Assembly (NCBI RefSeq): GCF_000196355.1
Contig: NC_007614.1
Span: forward strand, 60,001 to 92,000
Direction: 5' to 3'
Source of the DNA: Nitrosospira multiformis ATCC 25196
GTDB lineage: Bacteria; Pseudomonadota; Gammaproteobacteria; Burkholderiales; Nitrosomonadaceae
DNA length: 32,000 nt
A model generated the notes under the pieces. It saw only the letters and a list, made by a program, of their open reading frames with translations, did not search any database and had not been told where the DNA came from. Below are positions 455 through 12,219 of the stretch, piece after piece (position 1 is the first letter of the stretch; every line of letters starts with the position of its first letter). The position numbers and the translations under genes were made by a program.

Positions 455-698
455 AAGAATTTACACATATCATCCAATAATTCCAATAATAGCCGGTAAA
501 CCGGGTACTTCCGTTTTCAATCCAGGACGATGACTATTTGCGGCGGGGAGTCACGCGGTAGCGGCAAAAAACATGACCAATGTTATTTATACATTCAACT
601 ACCGATTTTCCTGCGGCTATTCGATATTGCACCTGAACTAGAACTATACAGCCCAGGTGCTCATGGATACTAGCTTTAAGATACTCAATCTTTGCTAT

Positions 699-720
699 GG
701 GTACACACGGGGGTACACAC
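699..720 (+). repeat. tandem GGGTACACAC x2 (699-708, 711-720); candidate recombinase/Xis arm-type sites at the island left end
   Basis: Exact 10-mer duplicated with a 2-bp spacer. The same GGTACAC/GTACCC core recurs four times, in the same orientation, next to the integrase gene at 10936-11035. Confidence 0.4.
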
Positions 721-898
721 CTTATCCAGTTCACTACGAATTAGCCACCAGATTTGCCCTTTTCAATATAAAGCAAATAACGTCGAAAGACGAGTTTCCG
801 GAGGAACAAATAGGGCACACCTACACCCATCAAGAATATGAGTGTAGTAGCCCCCAATTGAACCGGACACAGATGCACTGATGATAGGAGATAGGCAT

Positions 899-1306
899 AT
901 GCCTGGTGCTATGCATAGTGCTTCAGGTTTGGATCGTATTGAAATCGTCACCGGGATCGAGCGCCGCAGGCGCTGGAGCCTGGGTGAGAAATTAAAAGCT
1001 GTTGAGGAATCCCGCTTGCCGGGCATGAGTGTCTCGTATGTGGCGCGAAAATATGGTATTGCTCCGAGCTTGTTATTTCGCTGGAGGAAGCTCATGACTG
1101 AAGGAGGCAAGGAAGCTGTTCGTAGCGATGATGCGGTAGTGTCTGCGGCCGAGGTGAAAGAGTTGAAGAAGCGGATCCGGGAGTTGGAGCGGGTTCTGGG
1201 CAAGAAAACCCTGGAGAACGAGATTCTCACGGAAGCGGTGAAGCTTGCGCATGAAAAAAAACTGATCTCGCGCATGCCCTTGCTGCCACCGGACGATTTG
1301 CCATGA
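899..1306 (+). CDS. IS3-family transposase OrfA (HTH)
   Basis: The motif RRRRWSLGEKLKAVEES...PGMSVSYVARKYGIAPSLLFRWRK resembles IS2 OrfA. GGAG at 887-890 precedes the ATG at 899; the ORF track begins at 881. Confidence 0.85.
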   Translation: MPGAMHSASGLDRIEIVTGIERRRRWSLGEKLKAVEESRLPGMSVSYVARKYGIAPSLLFRWRKLMTEGGKEAVRSDDAVVSAAEVKELKKRIRELERVLGKKTLENEILTEAVKLAHEKKLISRMPLLPPDDLP

Positions 1307-2151
1307 AGGCCATTGCAGACACCATGGGTGTGGCGCGCTCCCGTCTTGTGGAACGGATGAAGCCGCAGGAAAAGTCTTTTCGTTGCCGCTACAACAAGGC
1401 TGATGATGCCTGGCTGTTGCCCTTGATCCGCGAAATTGTGGATTGCCGCGCGACCTACGGATACAGAAGGATTTGCGCTCTCCTTAACCGCAAACTGGAG
1501 AGAATGGGCAAGCCTGCTGTCAATCACAAGCGGGTCTATCGCATCATGCGCCAGAATGGCCTGCTGCTGGCCCGATATACGGGCAAACAGCGCGTGCTGT
1601 CTCATGAAGGCAAGGTCATTACCTTGCGTTCCAATTTGCGCTGGTGTTCGGATGGTTTTGAGATTCCCTGCTGGAATGGGCAAGTAGTGCGTGTTGCCTT
1701 CGCCCTGGATTGCTGTGATCGTGAAGTCATCAGCCATGTTGCCACCACTGGCGGCATTACTGGGGAAATGGTGCGCGATCTGATGACTGAATCCGTTGAG
1801 CGGCGCTTCGGCACCGTTGACCTGCTCCCACACAGGGTGGAGTGGCTCAGCGACAATGGCAGCTGTTACACCGCCAGCGAGACAACTGCTTTTGCAAAGG
1901 ATATGGGCTTCATCAGCTGTTTTACTCCCGTCAGAAGTCCCGAATCCAACGGTATGGCCGAGGCCTTCGTCAAAACCTTCAAGCGGGATTACGTCTATGT
2001 CCATGATCGTCCCGACGCAAAAACCGTAATGGCGCAGCTTGACCAATGGTTCGAGGATTACAATGAATTCCATCCTCACAAGGGGCTGAAGATGAAGTCG
2101 CCAAGACAATTCATCCGCAGCCAGTTACTAACCGCATCCTGTCCGGTTTAA
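1303..2151 (+). CDS. IS3-family transposase OrfB (rve DDE domain), probably made as an OrfAB fusion by -1 frameshift
   Basis: Integrase-core motifs are present (WLSDNGSCYTA, SPESNGMAEAF). The A8 slippery run at 1254-1261 lies in the orfA frame, and the -1 frame opens immediately after the TGA at 1252-1254. Confidence 0.88.
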   Translation: MKAIADTMGVARSRLVERMKPQEKSFRCRYNKADDAWLLPLIREIVDCRATYGYRRICALLNRKLERMGKPAVNHKRVYRIMRQNGLLLARYTGKQRVLSHEGKVITLRSNLRWCSDGFEIPCWNGQVVRVAFALDCCDREVISHVATTGGITGEMVRDLMTESVERRFGTVDLLPHRVEWLSDNGSCYTASETTAFAKDMGFISCFTPVRSPESNGMAEAFVKTFKRDYVYVHDRPDAKTVMAQLDQWFEDYNEFHPHKGLKMKSPRQFIRSQLLTASCPV

Positions 2152-2550
2152 TAGGGGCAACTCCAATGAGGGCAAACATTACATACACCTGAGAAGATAA
2201 AAAAGCGGTTGAGACAGCGTTATCTGAGCCAACAAGTTGGCCAAAGAATCCCATCACTATAAAACTTAGGCCAACGATAGAATCCACCTTAGTTGCGACC
2301 ACCTTTTTAAGGTCGTCCTCCTTGTAAAACGCGTCGGCTTCCGAATACTCTTGTTCCCCCTGTGAAGCAAACCCCCAAACAAGGATCAATGCACCGAGAA
2401 GATCATATAGCAACGCCACACGAGCAAGGGTAAACCAATCAAGCGATAACATTTAATTCTCCTTAGTTAAATAGGCCAAAAGGCTACCTCCTAGTATGCA
2501 AATATCATTATGACATGTCAATGCGAACTAGAAATTTTTTTGTGAACTAC

Positions 2551-2578
2551 CTGCACTTTTGCAGACGTCTGCACTTTT
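2551..2578. promoter_or_regulatory. operator-like element: palindrome TGCAGACGTCTGCA (2560-2573) nested in a direct repeat CTGCACTTTT (2551-2560, 2569-2578)
   Basis: A perfect 14-bp palindrome lies about 40 bp upstream of a candidate minus-strand promoter for the membrane-protein gene (TTGACA at 2521-2516, 17-nt spacer, CATACT at 2498-2493). Confidence 0.4.
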
Positions 2579-2585
2579 CCCTGGA

Positions 2586-2621
2586 CAAACAAAAACCCCC
2601 TCATTTTTTAAGATGAGGGGG
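2586..2621 (-). terminator. rho-independent terminator after orf201
   Basis: The minus-strand stem is CCCCCTCAT / ATGAGGGGG (2596-2604 / 2613-2621) with an 8-nt loop, followed by TTTTTGTTTG. Confidence 0.75.
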
Positions 2622-2654
2622 TTACTTATACCTGGTGCGTTTAAGCTGCTTTAG

Positions 2655-3260
2655 TTAAAAAGGTGGATACACTCCTGTATCCCCCTTTCGAGCTGGTTTT
2701 TGCGATTGTACAGCGGTGTGCACCACTCCAGCATCAGTTAGCCCGGTCTCGATCTGGTCAATTTGTGCTTGGAGACTGGTATTTTCGGCCATAAGATTAT
2801 TTATTTCTGTCATCCGTTTTGGCATCGCAGGTCCAACAATGGTCGGGTATTCCATTTCTTGTACCGCTTTCCGCAGGCCTGCCTTTAGCTGGTCGCCCAG
2901 CATCCAAAATAATGCTACTTCGAGGTCATATACAGTAGCTTCATGATGGTCGTGTTCGCATGCTGTCAGGATTTTAAGCCCCCCCACTTTCCCTCTGTCT
3001 CCGACATAGTTGCAACCCGCGTCTTTGCCGTGGCAAGGATTTTTAGTGACAAGCTTCACCGCTTCTGCCAACTTTTGCGGATAGCGGTCTGCAATCCGAT
3101 CCATACGGGCAGCAAGCAGATCCGCCAGTTCTTCGCGAGGCGGAGGGAGGTTTTTGAGTTCCTCGATCCGGAGCTTATTCTTCCCTATTGTTGCCCGCAT
3201 CTTTTGGCACTCGTTACGAGCGTCTTCCAAAGTGCTTTTTACTTTTAACCAATCAAACAT
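2655..3260 (-). CDS. hypothetical protein with heptad-like (coiled-coil-looking) N- and C-terminal segments
   Basis: 201-aa ORF with an AAAGGAA SD, 42 nt downstream of the S49 gene. No family recognised. Confidence 0.6.
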   Translation of the reverse strand: MFDWLKVKSTLEDARNECQKMRATIGKNKLRIEELKNLPPPREELADLLAARMDRIADRYPQKLAEAVKLVTKNPCHGKDAGCNYVGDRGKVGGLKILTACEHDHHEATVYDLEVALFWMLGDQLKAGLRKAVQEMEYPTIVGPAMPKRMTEINNLMAENTSLQAQIDQIETGLTDAGVVHTAVQSQKPARKGDTGVYPPF

Positions 3261-3302
3261 TATCGATATTCCTTTGTCTTTTCAGGTTTGTTTACCCACC
3301 GC

Positions 3303-4268
3303 TTACACGCGACGTAATATCTTGACGCTGCCTGCCGCAGCTGCGCGCGTGTAGGCCGTGAAGCCCTCGAGTGTCACGAATTCCTCACGAATCTGCGGAT
3401 CATTGCGCCACTGGGCAGCGCAGGATTCTTCCAGGGACATAGATATTTGCTCCTCCTTTTTCGTTGCCCTGGCTGCGCTGGGCATTGCGCCAGACGAAAC
3501 CAGGGTACTTTCAAACGTGCCAATGGCGTCAGCCAGTCCCGCCCTTACTGCCTCAACGCCAACCAATACCCCGCCTTGCCCGAAGTCGGAGTTGACCTTC
3601 ATTTCATTAACTCCGCGATACCGTGCAACCTTCGCGGTAAATACACTGGCAAGACTGTCGATTTCTTTCTGCAGGACCTGGAGCCCCTCAGGGGTCGCCG
3701 GATCAGGTCTTTTCTTGGGTGCATTGGAAGAAACGATCTGATGAAAAATGACTCCCTGCATTTGCTGGCGCGCCTTGTCATCAATGGCTGTGCCAACCAC
3801 CCCGATGCTGCCTACCAGAGCTGTATCGGAAATTGTGATGTGACTGGTAGCGGCTGCCAGCCAGTAAGCAGCGGAAGCTCCCATTCCGGAAACAAAAGAC
3901 TCTATTGGCTTGATGGATCGAGCCGAGAATATTTGGTCCGCCAGCGGAGATACTCCGGATACCACGCCTCCAGGCGAATCAATGTTCAATACGATCTTGT
4001 TAACGGACGAGTCAGCCAAGGCAGCGCTCAGGTCCTGCTGGATGGTTTCCACATCTGTGCCGCCAAAGAGCAGACTGAGGAAGCTTGCGCGTGGCGTGAT
4101 AGGGCCAGTGATATCGATAACTGCCACGCCGTCCTGCGAAACACTTTTGCGTTGGGATGCCGGAAACTTGAGGCCTGGACCGGCAGCGTGTGCGTTTCGG
4201 ATCAGGCTTTCAAAAGTTTCCTTGTGCAATGCCCAGGGGCGGCCAAAGAGTTCAGTATGAAGACTCAT
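3303..4268 (-). CDS. S49-family serine peptidase (SppA / phage prohead protease gpC-like) with a scaffold-like C-terminal tail
   Basis: The sequence NKIVLNIDSPGG...SGMGASAAYWLAAA is typical of the S49/ClpP-fold family. The C-terminal roughly 80 aa is non-protease. The ATGA start/stop overlaps orf291. Confidence 0.75.
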   Translation of the reverse strand: MSLHTELFGRPWALHKETFESLIRNAHAAGPGLKFPASQRKSVSQDGVAVIDITGPITPRASFLSLLFGGTDVETIQQDLSAALADSSVNKIVLNIDSPGGVVSGVSPLADQIFSARSIKPIESFVSGMGASAAYWLAAATSHITISDTALVGSIGVVGTAIDDKARQQMQGVIFHQIVSSNAPKKRPDPATPEGLQVLQKEIDSLASVFTAKVARYRGVNEMKVNSDFGQGGVLVGVEAVRAGLADAIGTFESTLVSSGAMPSAARATKKEEQISMSLEESCAAQWRNDPQIREEFVTLEGFTAYTRAAAAGSVKILRRV

Positions 4269-5140
4269 AAGCTTTTCGCATCCGTAGACATATGCAATCC
4301 GGCTGATCTAAGCGCGTTTTCGATCTGCTCCTGGCTGAGCACGTCAGTAATCAAAGGCGGCAGTTCACCTTTTTCATCATCGCAATCCATGGCTTGGCGA
4401 AGGATGCGGCCATGATAGTCACTAAGATCATGATCATGTCTTGCCTGGAGCTCTTCTGAGCTGCCCCAAGCGTGAAGTGTGAGAACAGCTAGTTTTCCCA
4501 AAATATCCATGTACGATTTTCCTATATGAGTTGAGGGATTGATCGCAGTAGTCGATCGAGGTTGATCGTACGTATCGGCATGGAGGTGCAACAAGATGGA
4601 AGAGGTGCATGAAGCTGCGGCATGTTCCTGCACTATCTTCCTCAGCTGTCGCCAGTCACGAGGCACCATGCCCCCACCGAACTTGAAGGCAAAGAACAAT
4701 GCACGCCGAAAAGGAGTCATATCTTCCGGCGGAAGCGTGCGCTCCTCCAGCTGAGGCCAGAAGACCTCCTGGAAGATGTCAATTTGCTTGCTCAATTCAA
4801 GCCGGCGCTTGTGATCGGTAGGTTCATCAATCAATTCAAACGCACGCACGAGCCAGGTATTCCGTGCTTCGAATCTATCAACAGTTCGCCAATTACGTTG
4901 AGCCGCTGAAGGCGCAAGATTCATCACTTCATCGAGCGTGCGCTTCCCATTCACGTATTCACGGAATTTGGCTCTAACCCACAGAAGAGTTTCCGCAGGA
5001 ACCAATTCGCTATCAGGTGCGGTAAGCGCACGGATGTGTTCCTCTATATCGGGTGGAAGTCCACACTGTCTACCTGGTGGGGTTTCACCTCCCGTTGCCA
5101 GTTGCCTCCAATGATTTGCTTCGATGTGTGACGCACTCAT
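4265..5140 (-). CDS. hypothetical protein (291 aa), translationally coupled to the S49 peptidase
   Basis: Long ORF with a 4-bp overlap with the downstream gene. No family recognised. Confidence 0.6.
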   Translation of the reverse strand: MSASHIEANHWRQLATGGETPPGRQCGLPPDIEEHIRALTAPDSELVPAETLLWVRAKFREYVNGKRTLDEVMNLAPSAAQRNWRTVDRFEARNTWLVRAFELIDEPTDHKRRLELSKQIDIFQEVFWPQLEERTLPPEDMTPFRRALFFAFKFGGGMVPRDWRQLRKIVQEHAAASCTSSILLHLHADTYDQPRSTTAINPSTHIGKSYMDILGKLAVLTLHAWGSSEELQARHDHDLSDYHGRILRQAMDCDDEKGELPPLITDVLSQEQIENALRSAGLHMSTDAKSL

Positions 5141-5157
5141 TGGTAAATCTCTCCAAT

Positions 5158-5198
5158 GACCACCCTATTGACCACATAGACCACTCCGAACCGACCAC
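5158..5198. repeat. four GACCAC hexamers (5158, 5170, 5179, 5193) in the 5' region of orf291
   Basis: Four same-orientation copies lie within 41 bp, starting 18 bp upstream of the orf291 start codon. This is a candidate regulator-binding array. Confidence 0.35.
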
Positions 5199-5330
5199 CC
5201 CATGAGTTCAAAGTCACTAGCGCTTTTTTGGGGTCGTTCGTGCCGCATCTAAAAAACCTCCTGGAAGGACCCGTGAATTCTGGCTGGCAACCCCGTCCAG
5301 TTCTGCCCATCCCACACATATACATACCTA

Positions 5331-5534
5331 GGGTGAAATAAGTGAAATAAGTGAAGAAAGGCGTGGTTATTGGGTTTGAGCCAGATTGGTAAAAGTGAAA
5401 TAAGTGAAAAAAGGGTGATTTATATATAAAGTGATTTATATTATTTATAGTTATTTCACCTTTTTTCACCCTTTTTTCACCGTTAATATTCCTTTGAATA
5501 CCGCATGAATAGGCTTTCTTCACTTATTTCACCC
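5331..5534. repeat. iteron-flanked putative origin of replication
   Basis: Five GTGAARWAA 9-mers lie on the plus strand (5333, 5342, 5351, 5395, 5404) and five inverted copies follow (5451, 5461, 5472, 5515, 5524). They flank an AT-rich core that contains 2x GTGATTTATAT (5415, 5431). The outermost iteron overlaps the helicase stop codon. Confidence 0.7.
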
Positions 5535-6923
5535 TTTCTTATAAGCGTAATATCTCAATGCCGGTCTCCCGCCTGAGGCGCTATCCTTGCGTTCCTCCGC
5601 CAGTGGAGGCGCAAGGTTGAGCAACACCTCAAGCGCATGCTTCACCTGCTTGATATGCTTGCGGTTCCAGTGATCCTGCAAGGCTGTGAGGGTGATGCCA
5701 GGATTGGAAGTGATTAAGGACAGCACCTCGGCAACGAAAGGATCAATGCCGCCTTCATCATCCTGACAGTTGAAGATGTAGGTGACGCTAGCGTGCCAGT
5801 ACTCCACCCAGGCAATCGCCGCCCAAAGATCGCATGGCTCGATCTCAAGTCTTCCATCCATTGCAGCAAAGATCATGGCGAGCATTCGCGCATACATCTC
5901 AGATCGCGCCAGCAGGCTCCCTCCTTTGCCGTCCCTGTCCCGGGTAAGGCGTGGGTACTGCTCTATCCACAACTCGCGTGCAGCATCGCTCAGACGAACT
6001 TCCCGGGTGTTGTTCCCGTGGAGGTCACCTCCTGTTGCTGCCATTACTGCATCAGCTACGCGCGCCGCCAGCAGGCTCAGTGTTTCTTCAGGTGTGGGCT
6101 CAGGCAGAGGCACCAGCTTAGGGCGATACACGTACAGCATCATGAATCGATTCAGCAGCCCGTTTGCCACCTCGTTATCCGTCGATTTTTCGCGCAGCTC
6201 ATGGCTGGTGATGTGGCCCAGGATAACGACATGAGGCCGCGTGGCCTTGGTCTGATTGGTCTTGGTAAGCGGCTCCATATCCCGGCCATCGAAGAGATTG
6301 CGTATGGTTGCCGACAGTGTGTTGTTGTCGCGGCGCAGCTGCGAGAGCGTGTTGTCCATTTCGCTTTCAATCACCAGCAGGCGCTTATCCGCCACGCCAG
6401 CATCGGCCCCTTTGCCGTTGTCGTCAGCCTCGCGCGGGTCCCGTATCGCCCATGCCACCCCTTCACCAGTGGAAAGACCGCCAGCGTGAATCCGCAGGCG
6501 GTCATTGTTTCCTTGTCGTTTTCTAAGGATTTCATCTGCGCGGCGGAATATCTCACGTACCGTGGTTTCCGCCGTGCCCTTTCTGGCCTTGCCGCTCTTT
6601 CCAACAATGATCTGGAAGGCGCGGCAGTGAATCGAAGCATCTCCGATCTTCTGGAAAATGGAGCGGCCAGTCATCGCACAGAAGAAGGCCAGGACGTTCG
6701 ACGCCACGGCCACCGGATGCGCTTCGCTGTTGGAGCATGCTGCTTCGACGAACTTATGAACAAGAGGGGGGAAACCATCCTCATGCATGCGCGGCGGCGC
6801 CAAGGGAGTGTGAGTTTCAACCAGTTGTGGCCCCGGCAGCTTGCTCGCGCTCGCCTTCGCTGCCACCTTATCGAGGGCAACAGCGCCGCGCTCAATGCTT
6901 TGGGTATCGTCACGAATCGCCAT
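5529..6923 (-). CDS. DUF3987 (YfjI-like) putative replicative helicase / replication initiator
   Basis: 464 aa with a P-loop-like GKSGKARKGTA. The N-terminal FPPLVHKFVEAA region is typical of DUF3987 proteins found next to primases in integrative elements. Confidence 0.65.
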   Translation of the reverse strand: MAIRDDTQSIERGAVALDKVAAKASASKLPGPQLVETHTPLAPPRMHEDGFPPLVHKFVEAACSNSEAHPVAVASNVLAFFCAMTGRSIFQKIGDASIHCRAFQIIVGKSGKARKGTAETTVREIFRRADEILRKRQGNNDRLRIHAGGLSTGEGVAWAIRDPREADDNGKGADAGVADKRLLVIESEMDNTLSQLRRDNNTLSATIRNLFDGRDMEPLTKTNQTKATRPHVVILGHITSHELREKSTDNEVANGLLNRFMMLYVYRPKLVPLPEPTPEETLSLLAARVADAVMAATGGDLHGNNTREVRLSDAARELWIEQYPRLTRDRDGKGGSLLARSEMYARMLAMIFAAMDGRLEIEPCDLWAAIAWVEYWHASVTYIFNCQDDEGGIDPFVAEVLSLITSNPGITLTALQDHWNRKHIKQVKHALEVLLNLAPPLAEERKDSASGGRPALRYYAYKKG

Positions 6924-7335
6924 TGCACACCTCGGTCGCCCTTTGCAATCGTGAAGCAGCCACCAGGAGGCGCTTTCTGTCTTCCTCTGAAAGCTCCACG
7001 CCTTTGGCTACATTCAGTGCCGCTATCGATACCAGGAGTGCTTCGAATGCCAGACAGCGCAAAATGTCGCTTGCATAAAATGGTTTCCGCTCTTTCTGGC
7101 CGCTGTAACCTTCCTGACGCTCTGGAAACAAATCTTCGAGGGAGAGTCCTACTGCCGCGAGAACATTGGAGGTTTCGCATCCCGCGAAGTCATGCAGGAG
7201 CACGCGCCCATCGTCCAGTTCTCTAATCGCGAGAGAGGGCCGTTTATCCCGATGAGCTGGGCAGCGTGCTATCCAGCGACCTCTCCCGGTTTGTTTCACT
7301 CCGTCCAGGCGGTTCAAAAGGGTAGAGGCGCTCAT
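6910..7335 (-). CDS. primase-type zinc-binding domain protein (no catalytic domain recognisable)
   Basis: The WIARCPAHRDKRPSLAIRELDDGRVLLHDFAGC motif (CPxH...H..xxGC) matches the N-terminus of phage and plasmid primases. The protein is only 141 aa. It overlaps both neighbouring genes. Confidence 0.55.
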   Translation of the reverse strand: MSASTLLNRLDGVKQTGRGRWIARCPAHRDKRPSLAIRELDDGRVLLHDFAGCETSNVLAAVGLSLEDLFPERQEGYSGQKERKPFYASDILRCLAFEALLVSIAALNVAKGVELSEEDRKRLLVAASRLQRATEVCNGDS

Positions 7336-7607
7336 GAGCCACCTGCCTTCTGCTGCTCAGCGTCATGCTCATCCAGCAGCGCGCTAGCCTTTTCGATTTG
7401 CTTTATCAGGTTTTGAAGCGTGTAGATAAAACCATATGCCTCCGGGGCGGATAACTCGAGCCTGCTCTCGAGCTCTGCTCTATTGGAGAGCGCTCCGCTC
7501 AGGAACTCAGCCACGTAGGTGGCCTCGCAGAGCATGTCCTGTGCTTCAATGAGTTTGTTGGTGGTAGACGCTTGAAGCGCTACTACTTGTGCGTTTTGCC
7601 TAGCCAT
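7332..7607 (-). CDS. hypothetical protein (91 aa)
   Basis: ORF overlapping both neighbours (operon coupling). No family recognised. Confidence 0.5.
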   Translation of the reverse strand: MARQNAQVVALQASTTNKLIEAQDMLCEATYVAEFLSGALSNRAELESRLELSAPEAYGFIYTLQNLIKQIEKASALLDEHDAEQQKAGGS

Positions 7608-8031
7608 GTTGCACCTCCTTTGAGGTCAACGTAGGAGCACTTTCAGAATCCCTGTCATAGGGCGTAGCTCCAGCTCGAAGTGCACGAAGTCCCACAATGG
7701 CAACGGCAGCCAGGGCTTTTGAGAACCCGCATTCAATCCCCCATCCGGTTGATTTCCAACCGACGTCATTAAAAACGTACTCCAGGGCTAAGCAGGCCTC
7801 GTATTCGTCAACTTCGGCGAGCGCGACAATTTCTGCGAAATATTGCAACCCGATATCAACACCCTCGTGCCAGTACCCTTCTGGATCGTGGGGGACACGC
7901 CAAATGCGCAGAAGATCGTGTTCATCCGGGGCCGCGAAAGAAAGGTCGCTGCGGGACCGGATTGATTTGGCAGGGAGAGGTTGAACAGCTTTGAGATGTG
8001 GCGCGGACGCACCCTTGAATGCCTTAGGCAT
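7600..8031 (-). CDS. hypothetical protein (143 aa); first gene of the replication operon
   Basis: I trimmed the ORF from the track start at 8271 to the ATG at 8031, which is preceded by AAGGAG (8044-8039). The upstream 80 codons span a terminator and hairpins. Confidence 0.55.
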   Translation of the reverse strand: MPKAFKGASAPHLKAVQPLPAKSIRSRSDLSFAAPDEHDLLRIWRVPHDPEGYWHEGVDIGLQYFAEIVALAEVDEYEACLALEYVFNDVGWKSTGWGIECGFSKALAAVAIVGLRALRAGATPYDRDSESAPTLTSKEVQHG

Positions 8032-8038
8032 AGCAAGA

Positions 8039-8127
8039 CTCCTTTGTAAGCGGTTGATGTTCTCCGCTTCCCCGACGCCAATCGGGTGGGCGGAATCGTG
8101 CGAGTTGGCGTACCGGACAAAGGAACC
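8039..8127 (-). promoter_or_regulatory. structured 5' leader with SD-proximal motif copy (D) and antisense copy (M)
   Basis: Read in the RNA sense, M is GGUUCCUUUGUCCGGUACGCCAACUCG (8127-8101). D is a hairpin CCCGA-UUGGCG-UCGGG (8086-8071), then a hairpin at 8069-8048, then ACAAAGGAG (8047-8039), which contains the SD. Confidence 0.5.
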
Positions 8128-8190
8128 GGCGAGCCCGAAGGCTCCCCACACGACCCGCCCGTAAAAAGGGCTTGCCGTACAACGGACGTA

Positions 8191-8216
8191 AAATAAAAAA
8201 ACCGCCAAGAGGCGGT
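8191..8216 (-). terminator. rho-independent terminator (conditional?)
   Basis: The minus-strand stem is ACCGCC-UCUU-GGCGGU (8216-8201), followed by U8 (8200-8193). An upstream AGGCGG (8227-8222) can pair with the same CCGCCU instead. Confidence 0.7.
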
Positions 8217-8269
8217 TGTGTCCGCCTTTGTACCGAGACGCCAATCTCGACCACTGAATTTGCAGTGGC
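8191..8269 (-). ncRNA. candidate ~78-nt terminated leader transcript / small RNA
   Basis: It lies between a sigma70-like promoter and an intrinsic terminator. It contains hairpins CCACUG-CAAAUU-CAGUGG (8268-8251) and CGAGA-UUGGCG-UCUCG (8249-8234), followed by ACAAAGG. Confidence 0.4.
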
Positions 8270-8275
8270 AAGCAA

Positions 8276-8305
8276 AGGATAAGCCCGAGCGAATGCGAAT
8301 GTCAA
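8276..8305 (-). promoter_or_regulatory. sigma70-like promoter of the leader/replication operon
   Basis: On the minus strand there is TTGACA (8305-8300), an 18-nt spacer, and TATCCT (8281-8276). Confidence 0.45.
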
Positions 8306-8318
8306 GGGCTGGCAGGGG

Positions 8319-8552
8319 CTAATCACCATTGCCAGCACCTTTCAAGATGCGACGTTCTTCAGCCCGCTCATCCAAATGAGCCAACAAGGCTATTCCGACA
8401 ACAAGTACGGGATGCTTTTTGATTATTTCCTCTGGTGATTCCCGTAGGCCAAGCTCGCCAGCTATGACCTGTGCTGCCTCCCAAAGCTGGTTGCTGGCAT
8501 ACTCAAGACCATCAGCCCGCAGCTTGTTGTAATCGATCTCAGGGCCGCTCAT
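8319..8552 (-). CDS. hypothetical protein (77 aa)
   Basis: ORF with an ATGA overlap with alpA. No family recognised. Confidence 0.5.
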   Translation of the reverse strand: MSGPEIDYNKLRADGLEYASNQLWEAAQVIAGELGLRESPEEIIKKHPVLVVGIALLAHLDERAEERRILKGAGNGD

Positions 8553-8803
8553 TGTGCTGTCCCTTGCAGCGAAGCCAGTACTTTTCTGAGTTTGCCAACG
8601 TTCCAGAATGTCATCCTGCCCAGCTTGGTGGGCTGCGGGAGAGTGCCGTCATTCACGCGCCGCCAGACCGTGGCATCGGAGCAGTTGAGAAGCCCCTTTA
8701 AAACTGGCTGGCGAACGTTGGCAGAATCGGGGAGTGAATCGAAGTGCTTGAGGGCATCAGGAATAACGTCTTCCTGCTTTACCCTTTTGCTCTGTTGAGG
8801 CAT
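8549..8803 (-). CDS. alpA: AlpA-family transcriptional regulator / excisionase-type HTH
   Basis: 84 aa. The segment LLNCSDATVWRRVNDGTLPQPTKLGRMTFWNVGKL matches the AlpA/MerR-type phage regulator pattern. Confidence 0.8.
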   Translation of the reverse strand: MPQQSKRVKQEDVIPDALKHFDSLPDSANVRQPVLKGLLNCSDATVWRRVNDGTLPQPTKLGRMTFWNVGKLRKVLASLQGTAQ

Positions 8804-8809
8804 GGTAGG

Positions 8810-8845
8810 TTTCTCCTTGATATGTTCTGAATGAACAAGGAGAAA
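8810..8845 (-). promoter_or_regulatory. SD-sequestering hairpin in the alpA 5' UTR
   Basis: A perfect 10-bp inverted repeat TTTCTCCTTG / CAAGGAGAAA (8810-8819 / 8836-8845) has a 16-nt loop. In the mRNA the 3' arm carries the AAGGAG SD, 9 nt from the ATG. Confidence 0.5.
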
Positions 8846-8915
8846 TCTACCGGCTTGGGATAGAGCTTTGTCCGATCGGTTTAATTTAAAGCCGATTCGG
8901 TTTTGATACGAGGAC

Positions 8916-9539
8916 TTATGCGCCTTTGAAGGGAATTCTTGTTGCTGCTTCTCTCAGGTATGCGAGTACCGTTTCCTCACTGATTTTAATGCCAACTATT
9001 TCAAGATCCCGCTTGATCACCCCGGGTACGGCACTCTTCTTTGCTTCGGGATCGTACTTATACTTTTTTACTGCTATCCCAAGCACTATTTTTAACAAGC
9101 TCGTTCTCGCACTGTCTGGAAGATTATCTTGCTGGCCTGTATCGTTTACCGTAAATATTGACAAAAGCTTGCGTTCTTCCTCCGAAATGCATTCCACATA
9201 GCTTTTTATGAAATGAGGTAAATCAGCTTCCAGAACGGCAAGTCTTTCTTTCATCGATTCCCGTAATCCTTCCTCTTCAGTATGTTGAATTTTCCAAGCA
9301 GCAAACCCACATAATCCTAACTTCCACAGCACACTTGCAGCCCTGCGCTGCCTGGTGGTCATGTTTATGTGCTCGGGTTCAGAGGACAGGTTCAATTTCT
9401 TGCCAATCTTGCAGTCAATTTCGCTGATGGTCACTTTATTGGTGTTGTATAAATTTGGCGGTATAAAATCAGCCAGATCTCGTCGCGCCATTTCTCGCAC
9501 TTCCAACATATCCCAACTTTTCTTATCCCAGCTGCTCAT
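8916..9539 (-). CDS. hypothetical protein (207 aa), AT-rich cargo or regulator
   Basis: Long ORF between int and alpA. It looks AT-richer than its neighbours by eye. No family recognised. Confidence 0.55.
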   Translation of the reverse strand: MSSWDKKSWDMLEVREMARRDLADFIPPNLYNTNKVTISEIDCKIGKKLNLSSEPEHINMTTRQRRAASVLWKLGLCGFAAWKIQHTEEEGLRESMKERLAVLEADLPHFIKSYVECISEEERKLLSIFTVNDTGQQDNLPDSARTSLLKIVLGIAVKKYKYDPEAKKSAVPGVIKRDLEIVGIKISEETVLAYLREAATRIPFKGA

Positions 9540-9639
9540 TTCCCACTTCCTTCCAAGCGTATCCCTTCAAATTGGTTGCCACCCCAGGCGGTGAAGGTTT
9601 CCGTTTTTCTCCTGGCCTGGATAGGGGTGGCTTAACAGT

Positions 9640-10902
9640 TTATTGTTTTGTTGCTACGGCACGCCTGATCGGCACAACCTTATCAGCCTCGCCCCGCTCG
9701 ATCTGGAGCAACAGTCCCGCCCAGGCCTCCAGTGCCGCCTTGCGTTCTTCAAAGTAGTCGTGCCGGTTATAGATGCCCTCGATCCCCTTGATCTTGTGAT
9801 TCAGGCAACGCTCGGCAATGTGAGGGGCAACGCCCAGGGCTTCGAAATGCGTACGCGCAGTACGGCGTAGATCATGGATAGTGAAGGGTTCCAGGCCGTG
9901 CTTGATCTTTGCCAGAGCCACGCTCAGCGTGCTTTCCGCAATATGTGGAATCATCCGATCCTGCATCTTGCGAGCCGGCAACACCCACTTGCTAACACCC
10001 GCCAGGCGCTGCAACTCGCGCAGCCACTCTACTGCAATCGGAGGCAAGGGTATGTCAATGGCAGATTCGGTTTTCGTGCGTTCGGCAGGCAGATACCAGA
10101 CAGCTTTATCCAGGTCGAACTCAGACCACCTGGCGCCGATCAGCTCACCCTTTCGCACCGCAAGCAGTAATAGCAGTTTGATGCTCAAGCCGTTCTCCAC
10201 ACTGAAACCAGGTGCTTGCCGCATTGCTTCAAAGAGCGTGACCAGCTCCTCGCTGGTCAACCAGCGCGTCCGGCTTTTCTCCTTGCCGCCAGCGTCACCT
10301 GGATCAAATGCAGCCGCGGGATTGTATTCGATGATGTGGCGCTTGATAGCATAGTTGAACATGCGCTTAAGCCAGCGCAGTGTATCGTTCGCTATGGAAG
10401 GCGCACCCCGTTTCATTACAGCCTTGAGCACATCATCAATATGCCTGGGCTTTACATCCTCAACCTTCAAGCTGCCAATCGCGGGCTTGATGTCTTTCTC
10501 GATCCTGGATCGTACGATGTTTGGGTGCTTCCATCGCCCTGCAATCATCCTTTCAAAATATTCGTCGGCCAGCTGCGCCACGGTGTACGCATTCTTCTCC
10601 GCTTCTATCCTGGCAATGGCTTCGCCCTTGCGCTGCTGTTTTTCTCCGGCCACGTCGTAGCCCAAAGCAACGCGAGCGGACAGCTTCTTGGCTTCATCCC
10701 TGGCATCCGCCAGGGATAGCGTACCGTAACTGCCAATATTCATAACGCGGCGCTTGCCACAAAAACGGTATCTGAAACGCCAGATAGGAATGGCATAACC
10801 TTCACGAAAACTCAGATATAGGCCACCACCTACAGCACGGCCTTCAAACCGTTCGCCCGCCTTGATCCAGTTGCGGATCTCCATGTCTGTTAGCTTAGCC
10901 AT
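9640..10902 (-). CDS. int: tyrosine-type site-specific integrase (P4/CP4-57 type, DUF4102 N-terminus)
   Basis: 420 aa. The N-terminal LTDMEIRNWIKAGERF...GGLYLSF is typical of the family, and the C-terminal catalytic pattern HDLRRTART...LNH...GIYNRHDY is present. Confidence 0.92.
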   Translation of the reverse strand: MAKLTDMEIRNWIKAGERFEGRAVGGGLYLSFREGYAIPIWRFRYRFCGKRRVMNIGSYGTLSLADARDEAKKLSARVALGYDVAGEKQQRKGEAIARIEAEKNAYTVAQLADEYFERMIAGRWKHPNIVRSRIEKDIKPAIGSLKVEDVKPRHIDDVLKAVMKRGAPSIANDTLRWLKRMFNYAIKRHIIEYNPAAAFDPGDAGGKEKSRTRWLTSEELVTLFEAMRQAPGFSVENGLSIKLLLLLAVRKGELIGARWSEFDLDKAVWYLPAERTKTESAIDIPLPPIAVEWLRELQRLAGVSKWVLPARKMQDRMIPHIAESTLSVALAKIKHGLEPFTIHDLRRTARTHFEALGVAPHIAERCLNHKIKGIEGIYNRHDYFEERKAALEAWAGLLLQIERGEADKVVPIRRAVATKQ

Positions 10903-10935
10903 CTCTACTCACTGTTCAGGATTTAAGTTTTTTTA

Positions 10936-11035
10936 GGGGTACCCGGCATATCACGTAAACCCGCCTGTATCGGGCTTCTCGCTGGGTACACGTAAAAACC
11001 TGATAATTTCAGCGTATGTACCCTTATATGTACCC
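10936..11035 (+). repeat. four KGTACMC motifs (10938 GGTACCC, 10985 GGTACAC, 11017 TGTACCC, 11029 TGTACCC); candidate arm-type sites at the int-proximal end
   Basis: All are in the same orientation as the two left-end copies. CACGTAAA is also repeated (10952, 10989). Confidence 0.4.
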
Positions 11036-11078
11036 GGAAATATTGCGCTTTCCGGAAATGAATTGCAATGAACTGAAA

Positions 11079-11105
11079 TGAAAAAAGCCGCATGAATAGC
11101 GGCTT
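11079..11105 (-). terminator. rho-independent terminator of yicC
   Basis: The minus-strand stem AAGCCGC-UAUUCAU-GCGGCUU (11105-11085) is followed by UUUUUC. Confidence 0.7.
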
Positions 11106-11154
11106 TGAGGAAGTTATGAGGAAAATTTGAGACTGCCTGAGTCTCTGTGAAATA

Positions 11155-12048
11155 TCACTCAATGTTTTGCACCTGTTCCCGCATTTGCTCGATCAAAACC
11201 TTGAGTTCCACCGAAATTTTCGACACTTCCGCATCCACCGATTTCGCGCCGATGGTATTGGCTTCCCGGTTGAGTTCCTGCATCAAAAAATCCAGTCGCT
11301 TGCCGATCGCTCCGCCTTTCTCCAGAACGCGCTCCACTTCATCGAAGTGTGCCTGAAGGCGCGACAGTTCCTCATCCACATCGATCTTGCTGGCGAACAA
11401 TGTCAATTCCTGGCGGATGCGCTCGTCGTCGCAATTTATCATGGCTTCACGCAGTCTAGCCTTGAGCTTTTCCTGAAATGTCGCCAGCAAGGCAGGAATG
11501 GATGGACTGACTTCGGATGCGAGCCGGCGCATATTGCCCAGGCGGTCCAGCAAAATAGCTTTAAGTTTTGCACCTTCGCGCCCACGGGCAGCGGCCAGTT
11601 CGTCCACTGCCGCATGCATCAAGTCCATGCATGGCCCGAAAAAGTTCTCGGCGGAGGAGGATTCCGTCGCCAATATTCCGGGCCAACGAAGGACATCTGC
11701 CACCGCCAGGCCCCGAGCCTCGGGCAATACCGCCCTGACGGTACGGTCCAGTTCCAGCAGTTTTTGCAACAAATCCGCATTAATATGCTGCAAATCTTCC
11801 GCAGGTGTAATCCGGGAAAAACTGACGCGGCATTCGATTTTTCCACGCTTGAGGCGGGTGGTCAGAAATTCGCGCATTGCGGTTTCCAGCATGCGGAATT
11901 CGTCGGGAAGGCGAAACTGGATATCGAGATAACGGCTGTTGACCGAGCGAAGCTCGAGATTCAACGATCCTTGCGGGAGTTCCTTCGCGACTACGGCATA
12001 GCCGGTCATGCTGTAGATCTTGGCTAACTTGTCCACTCGATCATCCAC
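11155..12048 (-). CDS. yicC: YicC/YloC-family stress-induced protein (endoribonuclease)
   Basis: It has the SMTGYA N-terminus and the C-terminal LIEQMREQVQNIE typical of YicC. The start is uncertain (GTG at 12048 or ATG at 12009). Confidence 0.88.
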   Translation of the reverse strand: MDDRVDKLAKIYSMTGYAVVAKELPQGSLNLELRSVNSRYLDIQFRLPDEFRMLETAMREFLTTRLKRGKIECRVSFSRITPAEDLQHINADLLQKLLELDRTVRAVLPEARGLAVADVLRWPGILATESSSAENFFGPCMDLMHAAVDELAAARGREGAKLKAILLDRLGNMRRLASEVSPSIPALLATFQEKLKARLREAMINCDDERIRQELTLFASKIDVDEELSRLQAHFDEVERVLEKGGAIGKRLDFLMQELNREANTIGAKSVDAEVSKISVELKVLIEQMREQVQNIE

Positions 12049-12219
12049 TCGAAGGTCCTTGATGCGTTAAAATTGTGGGCCCAGGCATTATCGCATATCG
12101 TTGCTGCATATAAAGGAAACGAGTTGGTGTTTCCGTGCAGTGGAAAAGCGGTATGCATCGTTCGTCTTATCCGGTGATATATCACCGATCAGTTAATAGT
12201 GAAGGATATAGTACAACTT

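Follow-up and report, generated by a model that had tools for sequence, protein, structure and literature searches.

Nitrosospira multiformis is a soil ammonia oxidiser, and in strain ATCC 25196 the genes trxC and yicC are separated by a block of genes whose nature is addressed here in a stretch of 32,000 nucleotides of DNA (the window). The original prediction had placed this block at 626-11078 and read it as a PICI/P4-like phage satellite. It was found to be a mobile island of about 10.5 kb in the 3′ end of yicC (window about 636-11175), with a native length of about 9.2 kb once an IS3-family insertion is discounted, and it is probably an integrated phage satellite of the Gram-negative PICI/P4 design. 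All genes named in the prediction are present on the minus strand where they had been placed, and all five proposed gene overlaps (4265-4268, 6910-6923, 7332-7335, 7600-7607 and 8549-8552) are real. The island is bounded by the following features:

14-454: trxC, flanking gene
617-635, minus strand: attR, the displaced original yicC 3′ end (CAGGTGCA-ATATCGAATAG); the core CAGGTGCA shared by both ends lies at 628-635 (L004 alignment)
699-718, plus strand: two GGGTACAC boxes that are candidate arm-type sites for the integrase on the trxC side
10984-11035, unstranded: three GGGTACAY boxes, of which two are inverted and one is direct; candidate arm-type sites for the integrase on the yicC side
11084-11106, minus strand: terminator hairpin for yicC, brought by the island and inside it by att mapping
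11155-11175, minus strand: attL, the core CAGGTGCA at 11175-11168 and then the island-supplied synonymous yicC 3′ end AAACATTGAGTGA (L004 alignment)
11155-12048: yicC, flanking gene

An empty trxC-yicC junction in a related genome, proposed earlier as a check, exists in strain L004, where trxC lies 162 bp beyond yicC and the flanks are 99.4-99.8% identical; the island is therefore not conserved core content but a strain-specific integrated element of ATCC 25196. Alignment with this strain sets the island limits at the att cores 628-635 and 11168-11175, so that the island as predicted stands, its yicC-side end having been set about 95 bp short of the true end at 11175. The integrase targets the final ~23 nt of yicC. 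A synonymous new 3′ end brought by the island restores the reading frame and still encodes ...EQVQNIE*; the YicC protein is identical in the filled and the empty strain. All five matches to GGGTACAY in the window adjoin the two att ends (0.59 expected). Compared with attB of L004, attR has a 2-nt gap, and given this gap and the resident insertion sequence the present copy may move less readily than ancestral ones.

The integration genes occupy the yicC-side end of the island:

9640-10902, minus strand: int, P4-type tyrosine integrase, reading inward (Pfam, PHROG and P4 Int alignment)
9564-9631, minus strand: int-alpA RNA motif (RF02996, 55.6 bits, gathering 35.8, E 1.4e-9)
8916-9539, minus strand: orf207, no assigned function
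8549-8803, minus strand: putative AlpA/Vis-like HTH protein (excisionase/regulator)
8319-8552, minus strand: orf77, translationally coupled to the alpA-like gene by an ATGA overlap

The integrase call was borne out by the Pfam domains Arm-DNA-bind_3, Phage_int_M and Phage_integrase and by phrog_1 (3e-70), and the protein aligns over its full length with P4 Int (27% identity, E 2e-25). The gene called alpA is present, and its family assignment is tentative (phrog_9834, a PHROG excisionase, 8e-5; Pfam HTH_17, 0.036); the genes at the same position in the related islands L010 and L014 have weak Phage_AlpA matches. The int-alpA RNA motif also occurs in L010, L014, L017 and L083, the position of orf207 is taken by RovC-type regulators in L010 and L014, and orf77 is 84-86% conserved in L012 and L014.

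Between the integration genes and the early operon, the proposed promoter and leader are present and could be refined with Rfam models (63 and 70 bits):

8195-8305, minus strand: promoter-like site (8305-8276) and isrK/seqA-like leader (8269-8195)
8082-8166, minus strand: C4/CI-type antisense immunity RNA (RF01695, 70 bits, gathering 45, E 2.4e-12, full model)
8041-8082, minus strand: downstream target boxes ATTGGCGTC (8082-8074) and TACAAAGG (8048-8041), the seqC / a2b2 equivalent
7600-8031, minus strand: orf143, first gene of the early operon, which is predicted to be held off by RNA repression; its Shine-Dalgarno sequence is an antisense target

The leader matches RF01394 with 63.4 bits (gathering 50) and RF03163 with 43.6 bits, which is below the gathering value of 46.7, and contains upstream target boxes (ATTGGCGTC at 8245-8237, TACAAAGG at 8232-8225) and a terminator hairpin (8217-8200). 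Two antisense segments of the C4/CI RNA, CCTTTGT (8123-8117) and ACGCCAA (8111-8105), are exactly complementary to this box pair and to the second pair downstream, whose TACAAAGG box overlaps the AAGGAG Shine-Dalgarno sequence of orf143. Matches of the segments to both box pairs recur in four relatives (L012, L014, L017 and L083) as well as in the window and P4; the sequences of the boxes vary, and the changes are fully compensatory. As a positive control, the P4 CI RNA gave 74.9 bits with the same RF01695 model, and P4 yields the same pair of C4 and isrK RNAs as the island. The C4 (70 bits), isrK (63 bits) and int-alpA (56 bits) RNAs all lie on the island strand. By its Rfam matches and base complementarity, this region is a P4-type RNA immunity cassette ahead of the early operon. 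By analogy with P4 and P1, the processed RNA would silence the genes for replication and derepression through premature termination and a block of translation. C4-type RNAs are known from true phages (P1/P7) too, so the cassette is not specific to satellites.

The early operon, in the order orf143, orf91, zinc-ribbon gene and helicase gene, leads into a predicted origin:

7332-7607, minus strand: orf91, possible helper-derepression (P4 epsilon-like) protein, as a lead only
6910-7335, minus strand: 141-aa zinc-ribbon protein, primase-type zinc finger only
5529-6923, minus strand: DUF3987 P-loop replicative helicase-like protein (Rep)
5333-5532, unstranded: predicted replication origin, 5 + 5 inverted iterons GTGAAAWAAG with an AT-rich centre at 5414-5449

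The helicase call agrees with Pfam (DUF3987, 7e-14) and with matches to PHROG primase/helicase families. In the protein described as a primase zinc ribbon, the zinc ribbon is real (N-terminus of phrog_6088 'DNA primase', 1e-16, residues 4-80; Zn_ribbon_DnaG, 0.029) and the primase catalytic domain is absent; the protein is 67-94% conserved in all sister islands. The iteron origin was likewise recovered just downstream of the helicase gene, with ten copies of GTGAAAWAAG in 5333-5532 and 16 in the whole window, where 3.8 are expected. A listed 128-aa reading frame (5137-5523) overlaps the origin and was rejected as spurious. In sister islands an AAA_25 helicase can stand in place of the DUF3987 helicase: L012 has the same helicase type followed by the same iterons, L014 an AAA_25 helicase with different iterons, and among the relatives helicase and origin are thus exchanged together as one module. 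For orf91, which has a dN/dS of 0.60, Pfam PF25738 'Derepression' gave a full-length match at E 0.16 (3 of 15 family members match) and hhalign against P4 epsilon a probability of 9.7% over 78 columns, so that the link to epsilon is not significant by either method.

Beyond the origin follows the late cassette:

5163-5203, minus strand: four GGTGGTC repeats in a conserved non-coding block, at -58, -44, -35 and -23 from the orf291 start
4265-5140, minus strand: orf291, predicted all-helical, N domain 1-194 and C domain 211-281
3303-4268, minus strand: S49 prohead (head-maturation) protease, shortened form
2655-3260, minus strand: orf201, conserved protein of helical or coiled-coil type that may serve the protease as a scaffold-like partner
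2594-2623, minus strand: terminator-like hairpin after orf201, 11-bp stem with 6 GC pairs, then a T run

The S49 protease-like call holds (Peptidase_S49, 6e-21) and can be narrowed to a phage prohead protease: the protein matches phrog_53 (3e-69), shares 44% identity with a phage 'capsid assembly protease C', and has its closest non-island relatives in TerL-portal-protease-decoration-capsid modules. A cellular SppA identity was rejected on the phrog_53 match and these phage-module relatives. The catalytic dyad is intact (Ser132 and Lys186, conserved in 68 homologues). Its alignment with a 437-aa prophage protease covers residues 8-263 and 373-434 of the latter. The island protein thus misses about 110 residues in its interior and retains the C-terminal tail common to phage gpC-type proteases, which makes most sense if it enters procapsids. 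Sequence, profile and structure searches detected no homologue of known function or fold for orf291 or orf201. For orf291, no Pfam, PHROG or PDB match was obtained and the AF2 model is unusable (pLDDT 49.7); a word index gave 15 homologues, a profile search 406 cluster representatives, mostly of 140-200 aa and matching residues ~35-175, and the N and C domains are separate reading frames in L017. The AF2 model of orf201 (four long helices, pLDDT 68.7) had no fold match, and its 22 homologues are all Nitrosospira-type sequences; an HMM of orf201 also matches, in the remote islands L079 and L080, ~190-aa proteins beside proteases, and in L082, which has no protease, a ~176-aa reading frame. The late genes are conserved, and their substitution rates (dN/dS 0.15-0.29; orf291 0.17-0.27, orf201 0.26-0.29) show purifying selection. 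The GGTGGTC block, kept in L014 and L010 and with more copies in L012, is a candidate late-operator or packaging site, and the hairpin at 2594-2623 is the predicted end of the late operon.

This compact set of genes recurs, its reading frames intact, in five or more diverged variants. Integrases and insertion sites differ among these relatives, the zinc-ribbon protein, orf291, the protease and orf201 are constant, and the cargo after orf201 varies, with HipBA and DUF3644 among it. The last conserved gene of L012 is orf201, about 350 bp before a tRNA gene. In more remote relatives, genes resembling orf291 and orf201 are accompanied by a protease of S49 or ClpP type, and tape-measure-like proteins (TMP_2) occur in some relatives.

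A satellite is defined by helper-dependent induction and packaging. The PICI/P4-like reading gains support from the immunity cassette, the int-alpA RNA, the P4-type integrase, the helicase-origin swapping, the four-zone layout and the prohead protease; the P4/PICI layout with an antisense-RNA switch, a borrowed head protease and two unknown partner genes probably represents a phage-satellite variant, which would depend on a helper. Gram-negative PICIs are built of four zones (Integration, immunity, Replication and Late) and share with the island this layout, C4/isrK immunity RNAs and captured late genes, which in PICIs include Clp proteases (PMC10111431). Serine proteases are carried by virion-packaged marine elements (PMC9618062). 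The late module is undescribed, and by formal marker sets the island does not qualify as a P4-like element, a PICI (types A/B) or a cf-PICI. Neither a small terminase nor a cos or pac site could be recognised in it, nor any known capsid-remodelling gene. No helper phage was identified, the nearest phage or prophage proteases being only ~45-50% identical; prophage induction in ATCC 25196 is reported by Choi 2010, as cited in PMC9502458. By analogy with P4 and P1, a helper phage or stress signal would override the RNA repression, the AlpA/Vis-like protein and Int would excise the element, and the helicase with its zinc-ribbon partner would fire the ten-iteron origin. The shortened protease would be taken into procapsids built of a lambda-like helper coat protein, and together with orf291 and with orf201 as a scaffold-like protein would divert or rescale capsid assembly and packaging to the advantage of the 9-10-kb element, a function in line with the morphogenesis-interference module proposed originally.

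Int, the Xis-like protein, helicase and origin would also suffice for excision and episomal replication, and an unpackaged, plasmid-like island with a protease cassette serving anti-phage interference, abortive infection or a cellular role would account for the missing terS, cos or pac site and for a variable cargo (HipBA, DUF3644) as in defence or cargo islands. Moreover, 0 of 78 IMG/VR contigs with related proteases carry the orf291/orf201 pair, and the pair is likewise lacking from the IMG/VR contigs retrieved with the orf291/orf201 patterns, so that encapsidation is not supported by IMG/VR. This explanation is nevertheless considered unlikely, since the gpC-type tail of the protease is best explained by procapsid entry, layout and RNA immunity match known satellites, and Pfam, PHROG and defence searches (PADLOC included) found in the island neither a defence family nor a relaxase or oriT-associated gene that could provide a different means of transfer.

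A decaying prophage, reduced by deletions to its integrase end, a few early genes and one head gene, would agree with the phage-derived protease, the inserted IS and a C4-type RNA as in P1-like phages. It is regarded as very improbable, because the gene set recurs in diverged variants with intact, constrained reading frames, modules are cleanly exchanged among relatives, the conserved genes of L012 stop at orf201, intact att sites and arm boxes are matched by a clean empty site, and int reading inward beside alpA is the arrangement of satellites and not of prophages (PMC10111431). Hardly any weight is given to a very small autonomous temperate virus with a capsid of unrecognised orf291 and/or orf201 matured by its own protease, to which the operon of a protease with two conserved unknown proteins, the S49 or ClpP proteases possibly at the same place in relatives and the TMP_2 proteins could point. 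Both proteins are predicted to be all-helical, unlike HK97-fold or jelly-roll capsid proteins, and, as originally noted, no terminase, portal, capsid, tail or lysis family matched in the island. Known tailed-phage genomes are also far larger than 9 kb.

The insertion sequence in the last island gene does not belong to the native gene set:

741-838, minus strand: small membrane-protein gene (cargo), 3′ part, cut off by the IS
839-2166, plus strand: IS3-family insertion sequence with orfA (881-1306) and orfB (1303-2151), ends good to about +/-3 bp
2167-2452, minus strand: small membrane-protein gene, 5′ part, gene start 2452

The IS matches HTH_Tnp_1, rve, HTH_21 and rve_3 (Pfam), has imperfect terminal inverted repeats at its ends and is a secondary insertion that landed later. 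The membrane-protein gene predicted as last gene exists and is interrupted by this IS, which had been missed; the 113-aa 'membrane protein' was rejected as a native gene, being a truncated hybrid made by the IS. In silico removal of the IS gives one ~127-aa reading frame ending at 741 with a continuous hydrophobic helix, and a homologue (49.6% identity over 119 aa) directly follows orf201 in L014. Draft assemblies of the same strain break at the IS.

The island is a recent, site-specific insertion between yicC and trxC. The original prediction had called for an empty trxC-yicC junction in a related genome, and such a site was found by exact-protein look-up in a second N. multiformis genome (GCA_900107715.1, L004), which encodes an identical YicC protein and in which yicC is followed by trxC 162 bp later. 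The flanks of L004 were 99.4% (over 4.8 kb) and 99.8% identical to those of the window. Alignment of the empty site with both island ends yielded the following features:

14-454: trxC, flanking gene (family scan)
11155-12048: yicC, flanking gene (family scan)
628-635 and 11168-11175: shared att core CAGGTGCA (empty-site comparison)
attB, empty site of L004: ...GAACAGGTGCAGAATATCGAATAG/CCGCAGG (alignment with both island ends)
yicC-side junction: ...GAACAGGTGCAAAACATTGAGTGA... (alignment with the empty site)
trxC-side junction: ...TTCAGGTGCA-ATATCGAATAGCCGCAGG (alignment with the empty site)
11106-11084: terminator hairpin supplied by the island for yicC

Due to the positions of the att core, the island spans ~636-11175 instead of the initially proposed 626-11078, corresponding to 10.5 kb with and ~9.2 kb without an insertion sequence (IS). 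No long direct repeat was found at the island ends, the att core being visible only through the empty-site comparison. The insertion point lies in the last codons of yicC, for which the island brings a synonymous replacement, and EQVQNIE followed by the stop codon is encoded in both versions. Five GGGTACAY boxes are present in the 32-kb window (699, 711, 10984, 11016 and 11028; 0.59 expected), all adjoining the island ends, and these are probably arm-type integrase sites; the att and arm apparatus is intact. Excision is predicted to create the attP junction ...GGGCTGTATAGTTCTAGTTCAGGTGCAAAACATTGAGTGATATTTCACAGAGAC... and to restore attB as ...GAACAGGTGCAATATCGAATAGCCGCAGG.... The attR (617-635) lacks 2 nt (GA) in comparison to the attB of L004 (5872-5894), so that precise excision would leave the last few yicC codons frameshifted; this gap may reflect a polymorphism between strains or have arisen after integration.

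The gene list of the original prediction was confirmed, with every island gene on the minus strand and all five start/stop overlaps as described, and its guess of an environmental betaproteobacterium as host agrees with N. multiformis ATCC 25196. Family scans upheld the assignments of the tyrosine integrase (Arm-DNA-bind_3, Phage_int_M and Phage_integrase domains), the DUF3987 helicase, the S49 protease and the primase-type Zn-ribbon protein, a 141-aa protein whose first 80 residues resemble the N-terminal zinc ribbon of phage primases (phrog_6088, 1e-16). The call of alpA fared less well: the 84-aa protein matched a PHROG excisionase family (phrog_9834, 8e-5) and Pfam HTH_17 (0.036), both weakly, and left Phage_AlpA unmatched. 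As had been claimed from the sequence alone, no terminase, portal, capsid, tail, lysis or relaxase family was matched by any island protein in PHROG, Pfam and NCBIfam scans, and a PADLOC scan likewise returned no defence family. The latter result led to the rejection of a defence-system reading of the island.

At least five variants of the island are known:

N. multiformis ATCC 25196 (the window)
N. briensis Nsp8 (L010/L018)
uncultured Nitrosospira (L012/L019)
SCN 54-20 bioreactor contig (L014)
N. multiformis metagenome-assembled genome, MAG (L017)

A close metagenomic relative (L083) was found in addition. The Zn-ribbon gene, orf291, the S49 protease gene and orf201 were kept in all variants, while the variant integrases share 25-30% identity with that of the window. 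Genes for tRNAs were located near the ends of the elements, in L010 and L014 upstream of int (at 170-240 bp) and in L012 and L017 downstream of orf201 (at 190-350 bp).

The region originally described as promoter and leader does contain a promoter-like site and a leader, and beyond this it constitutes a P4-type RNA immunity switch. Scanning the island with Rfam gave four matches, all on the island strand, and further elements were assigned around them in gene orientation:

8166-8082, minus strand: C4 antisense RNA (RF01695), 70 bits (gathering 45), E 2e-12, full model
8269-8195, minus strand: isrK (RF01394), 63.4 bits (gathering 50)
8282-8230, minus strand: c4-a1b1 target motif, 43.6 bits, slightly below the gathering threshold of 46.7
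9631-9564, minus strand: int-alpA RNA, 56 bits (gathering 35.8)
8305-8276, minus strand: promoter-like site TTGACA-18-TATCCT
8245-8237 and 8232-8225, minus strand: leader boxes ATTGGCGTC and TACAAAGG
8217-8200, minus strand: leader terminator hairpin
8123-8117 and 8111-8105, minus strand: antisense segments CCTTTGT and ACGCCAA of the C4 RNA
8082-8074 and 8048-8041, minus strand: downstream box pair, same as the leader boxes

The isrK leader followed by C4 lies upstream of the early operon in the same strand and order as in P4, and in satellite P4, used as control, the scan likewise recovered isrK followed by C4, at the seqA leader and the CI RNA, respectively. The Rfam C4 and isrK models have been equated with P4 CI and seqA (PMC10111431; PMC4825925). 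Two segments of the C4 RNA are exactly complementary (7 nt) to the box pairs both upstream and downstream of the RNA, and the box at 8048-8041 covers the AAGGAG Shine-Dalgarno sequence of orf143 (ATG at 8031), so that the antisense-RNA cassette is positioned to shut off the early operon. The complementarity to both box pairs holds in the window, in four sister islands and in P4, with box changes being matched by changes of the RNA segments.

Box pairs of the RNA immunity cassettes
Window: ACAAAGG / TTGGCGT
L083 and L017: GAAAAGG / TTGGCGT
L014: GCAAAGG / TTAGCAG
L012: ACCAAGG / TTCGAAG
P4: TTCACAGG / GTGAGAA

Such three-way compensation argues strongly, on comparative grounds, for a working RNA switch, and it suggests that immunity specificity varies among the islands. 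In frame with orf143, a 223-aa ORF starting with TTG (7600-8271) spans the C4 RNA together with a portion of the leader, which recalls the location of CI within the eta/kil reading frame of P4. In most variants the int-alpA RNA motif (9564-9631 in the window, also in L010, L014, L017 and L083) sits between int and the next gene.

In the replication module, ten GTGAAAWAAG iterons were identified in 5333-5532, five in each orientation around an AT-rich centre (16 copies in the whole window, 3.8 expected). Their array starts in the final codons of the helicase gene (gene end at 5529) and continues downstream. A 128-aa ORF listed over this region was discarded as spurious. L012 carries a helicase of the same type (87% identical) with the same iterons, whereas L014 and L010 have an AAA_25 helicase instead, followed directly in L014 by different iterons (GCTAAGNTGCTCA); the iteron origin is therefore coupled to its helicase and both are exchanged as a unit, as in PICIs. 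A primase catalytic domain is absent from the island replication proteins, and a role in recruiting or assisting priming is possible for the conserved Zn-ribbon protein. Regarding the small early ORFs, orf143 did not match P4 ORF151. For orf91, a match to PF25738 ("Derepression") over the full length was obtained at E 0.16, and 3 of 15 orf91 relatives matched the same family; the comparison with P4 epsilon gave an hhalign probability of 9.7% and no BLASTP match. With a dN/dS of 0.60, orf91 evolves fast. It may be an epsilon-like derepressor, these similarities being not significant.

The late operon, comprising orf291, the S49 protease gene and orf201, is conserved, and its protease is apparently active. 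The S49 protein is placed in the phage prohead protease lineage by its matches to phrog_53 (3e-69) and Pfam S49 (6e-21) and by its best phage match, a "capsid assembly protease C" of 44% identity; NCBIfam SppA models remained below cut-off. A weak match to the portal family phrog_21 (E 0.0094) was overlapped by the far stronger protease match. The closest non-island relatives (45% and 43% identity) are 412-437 aa in length and are encoded within TerL-portal-protease-decoration-capsid modules. The island protein of 321 aa aligns to residues 8-263 and 373-434 of a 437-aa prophage protease and thus lacks ~110 internal residues, with the C-terminal tail (AQWR..EF..F.AY..A..G.V..LRR) kept. Since Ser132 is found in 99% and Lys186 in 94% of 68 homologues, the protease is probably active. 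In the 399-aa L014 protease (10870-12069) the C-terminal tail region is present twice (56% identity over 80 aa), which suggests that this region is evolutionarily plastic.

The low dN/dS of 0.15-0.29 for orf291, the S49 gene, orf201 and the Zn-ribbon gene in three variants indicates that orf291 and orf201 are real genes. The orf291 product is predicted to be all-helical, albeit from a poor model (pLDDT 49.7), and orf201 consists of four long helices (pLDDT 68.7). The orf201 model gave no significant fold match in PDB and BFVD, only generic coiled coils, and profiles of orf291, orf201 and the broad orf291-like family gave no match to PDB sequences, Pfam or PHROGs. In L017, orf291 is split into ORFs of 192 aa (9135-9713) and 81 aa (9759-10004), which, together with 192-aa versions in several datasets, indicates that orf291 is a fusion of two units. 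Four GGTGG(T/C)C-type repeats form a non-coding block upstream of orf291 (5163-5203), which is conserved with four or more repeats in L014 (~9940-9980), L010 and L012 (~4455-4530) and persists in variants with an exchanged helicase/origin module; it is a candidate late operator or packaging site.

It may be guessed that orf291 is a small terminase, which would be compatible with its length, its helical character, its location and the repeats directly before the gene; sequence support for this is absent, and no terminase family was found among the PHROG, Pfam and NCBIfam matches of any island protein. Analogy of orf201 or orf291 to Psu, Sid or Delta found no support; hhalign probabilities were 0.2-11.6% over short stretches only and no PHROG match was obtained. 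Very small, unannotated Ralstonia "phage" records that encode a related S49 protease were also considered as the same kind of element and rejected because no other island protein matches L016 (ON170017.1), the one record compared. In this and other 11-18-kb "Ralstonia phage YO..." records the S49 gene lies among large ORFs (525, 419 and 336 aa); judged as head-module content by ORF sizes alone, these records might be cf-PICI-like elements or prophage fragments.

In comparison to satellite P4, the island shares an Arm-DNA-bind_3 integrase (BLASTP, 27% identity over ~400 aa, full length, E 2e-25), a weakly supported Vis/AlpA-like gene coupled in translation to the following ORF, an isrK/seqA-like leader followed by a C4/CI RNA with box pairs on both sides and the second downstream box over the first RBS, small ORFs, possibly one epsilon-like, preceding the replication gene, replication repeats directly downstream of that gene (crr in P4) and a size of ~9-11 kb. 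It differs from P4 in having no Psu, Delta or Sid homologues, and its replication protein is non-homologous to alpha (no BLASTP similarity) and without primase domain, the DUF3987 helicase and the separate Zn-ribbon protein standing in place of alpha as a functional analogue. Moreover, the island genes are co-directional with int beside alpA, whereas int and alpha are located at opposite ends of the P4 prophage; the late cassette consists of a prohead protease and two unknown proteins; the island resides in a nitrifying betaproteobacterium, whereas P4 and P4-like elements belong to Enterobacterales; and the window copy is inserted at the 3′-end of a protein gene. P4-like elements have been defined by seven components of which at most two may be missing (PMC8628076), and the island falls outside this definition because it lacks homologues of Psu, Delta, Sid and alpha.

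Gram-negative PICIs are organized in four zones, namely Integration (int inward, AlpA/HTH_17), Bro/immunity, Replication and Late (Mageeney et al. 2023, PMC10111431), and they carry C4/isrK RNAs and captured late genes, some with a CLP_protease gene (PMC10111431). The island has the same zone order as, e.g., EcCICFT073, with a prohead protease in the late zone, and like PICIs, whose median size is 9.5 kb (PMC10085698), it exchanges int and rep-ori as modules. In contrast to PICIs, the island yielded no match to a Bro-domain protein, a small terminase, Rpp/Ppi or a capsid-morphogenesis gene of known type. From the set of five PICI core components of SatelliteFinder (PMC10085698), the integrase and the replication proteins are clear and the regulator (alpA/merR/stl) is weakly supported; no capsid-morphogenesis family was matched by orf291 or orf201, only the protease being phage-like. 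Among the functions that PICIs must not encode (tail, holin, portal, head-tail connector/adaptor), none was found except for the weak phrog_21 match under the protease. By the description in PMC10085698, the island would at best be a PICI "Type C" (int, regulator and pri-rep), a type which the SatelliteFinder paper does not count as PICI (PMC10085698). An own prohead protease in an int-alpA-rep element is also found in cf-PICIs, but these encode capsid, portal, head-tail adaptor/connector, TerS and TerL, none of which is present in the island; without a capsid or portal gene it is not a cf-PICI.

With lambda gpC the island protease shares the S49 fold, the Ser/Lys dyad and the N- and C-terminal regions of the 412-437-aa lambda-like proteases, but it is only 321 aa long with the ~110 internal residues fewer and has no flanking portal or coat genes. 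In lambda, the prohead protease gpC is encoded with the nested scaffold Nu3, and by analogy the missing internal segment may be the scaffold region. Marine VEIMEs, which were compared by description, are small integrase-bearing elements without capsid genes found in virus particles, some with "periplasmic serine proteases"; in the account considered, serine proteases belong to module 2 (Eppley et al. 2022, PMC9618062), which provides a precedent. According to the same description, VEIMEs differ from the island in being smaller, in residing in marine Alphaproteobacteria and in being packaged as concatemers, and RNA immunity is not reported for them in the part of PMC9618062 considered here. We file the island as an element that works like a PICI/P4-type satellite outside every formally defined family.

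By analogy with P4, the C4/CI RNA would keep the element quiescent. In phage P1, c4 occludes a ribosome-binding site, and that of orf143 would also be occluded by the island RNA. In P4, pairing of CI with seqA and seqC causes premature termination (PMC4825925). A helper phage or stress would relieve the block, Int and the AlpA-like protein would excise the element, and the element would then replicate. The shortened protease could enter helper procapsids via its kept tail and, together with a scaffold-like orf201 and orf291, bias capsid assembly and packaging so that the 9-10-kb element is favoured. Both the dependence on a helper and this role of the late cassette are hypothetical. Prophage induction in ATCC 25196 has been reported (Choi 2010, as cited in PMC9502458), which makes a resident helper plausible; the search for a helper via close protease relatives gave best matches of ~45-50% identity, none from Nitrosospira.

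In order to find wider relatives, the orf291 profile was compared with 1.8 billion cluster representatives (50% identity), of which 406 matched, mostly proteins of 140-200 aa that match residues ~35-175 of orf291. This family of 406 representatives corresponds to no Pfam or PHROG family. The four orf291-like contexts inspected, on which the wider family rests, were all small integrase and helicase islands, and in three of the four the orf201 profile matched a ~190-aa downstream protein. The orf291-like/orf201-like pair flanks an S49 protease in L079 and a ClpP-type protease in L080 and L081, and occurs without protease in L082. Apart from the sister islands, the pair was absent from 61 genome loci and 78 IMG/VR contigs with related proteases, which indicates that it marks these islands and not phages. 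Neither the orf291 nor the orf201 alignment gave a match in IMG/VR, and an orf201 metagenome scan gave three close relatives only. Downstream of the orf201-like gene, L079 (12623-14578) and L082 (7423-9231) encode TMP_2 (tape-measure-like) proteins of 600-650 aa, which are unexpected in ~10-kb elements without other tail genes.

On a tentative reading, which we consider somewhat less probable than its failure, an orf291-like protein, an interchangeable S49/ClpP prohead protease and an orf201-like helical protein would constitute a new capsid-hijacking module defining a widespread, undescribed satellite family of environmental bacteria. If so, the satellite would use its own shortened protease and a scaffold-like protein to resize or monopolise helper capsids, and in Nitrosospira this late module would be combined with a P4-type RNA switch that comes in several immunity specificities. 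Detailed knowledge of satellites stems mainly from Enterobacterales, Vibrio, Pasteurellaceae and Firmicutes, and to our knowledge almost nothing is known of the phage biology of ammonia-oxidising Betaproteobacteria. The island would be a documented satellite case in this group, which is central to the nitrogen cycle and wastewater treatment, and it appears to place P4-style CI-RNA immunity with variant-specific boxes far outside enterics, joined to a PICI-like gene order. Elements with such a conserved protease-centred late cassette would be missed by current satellite finders, and the two protein profiles together with the RNA models offer a handle for finding many more of them in soil and water metagenomes. 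As ATCC 25196 is cultivable and its prophages are reportedly inducible, the satellite prediction is directly testable.

The region after orf201 looks like an accessory-gene hotspot. In L012, orf201 is the last conserved gene, ~350 bp before the tRNA gene, and other variants carry varied cargo (DUF3644, DUF488, HipBA), namely DUF488 and a HipA/HipB toxin-antitoxin in L014 (13533-17309) and DUF3644 in L010 (13650-14633), versus a small membrane protein in the window. The latter gene, the last of the island, is split by an IS3-family element at ~839-2166, which had escaped the original prediction and whose ends are approximate. The element is located on the plus strand with HTH_Tnp_1 and rve ORFs (orfA and orfB, overlapping as is usual) and with imperfect inverted repeats at its ends. 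It is present in one copy within the window, and draft assemblies of ATCC 25196 break at it, which suggests several genomic copies. Removal of the element joins 2452-2167 to 838-741, and the rejoined product is a membrane protein of ~127 aa with an unbroken hydrophobic helix, a homologue of which is encoded at the same position in a sister island.
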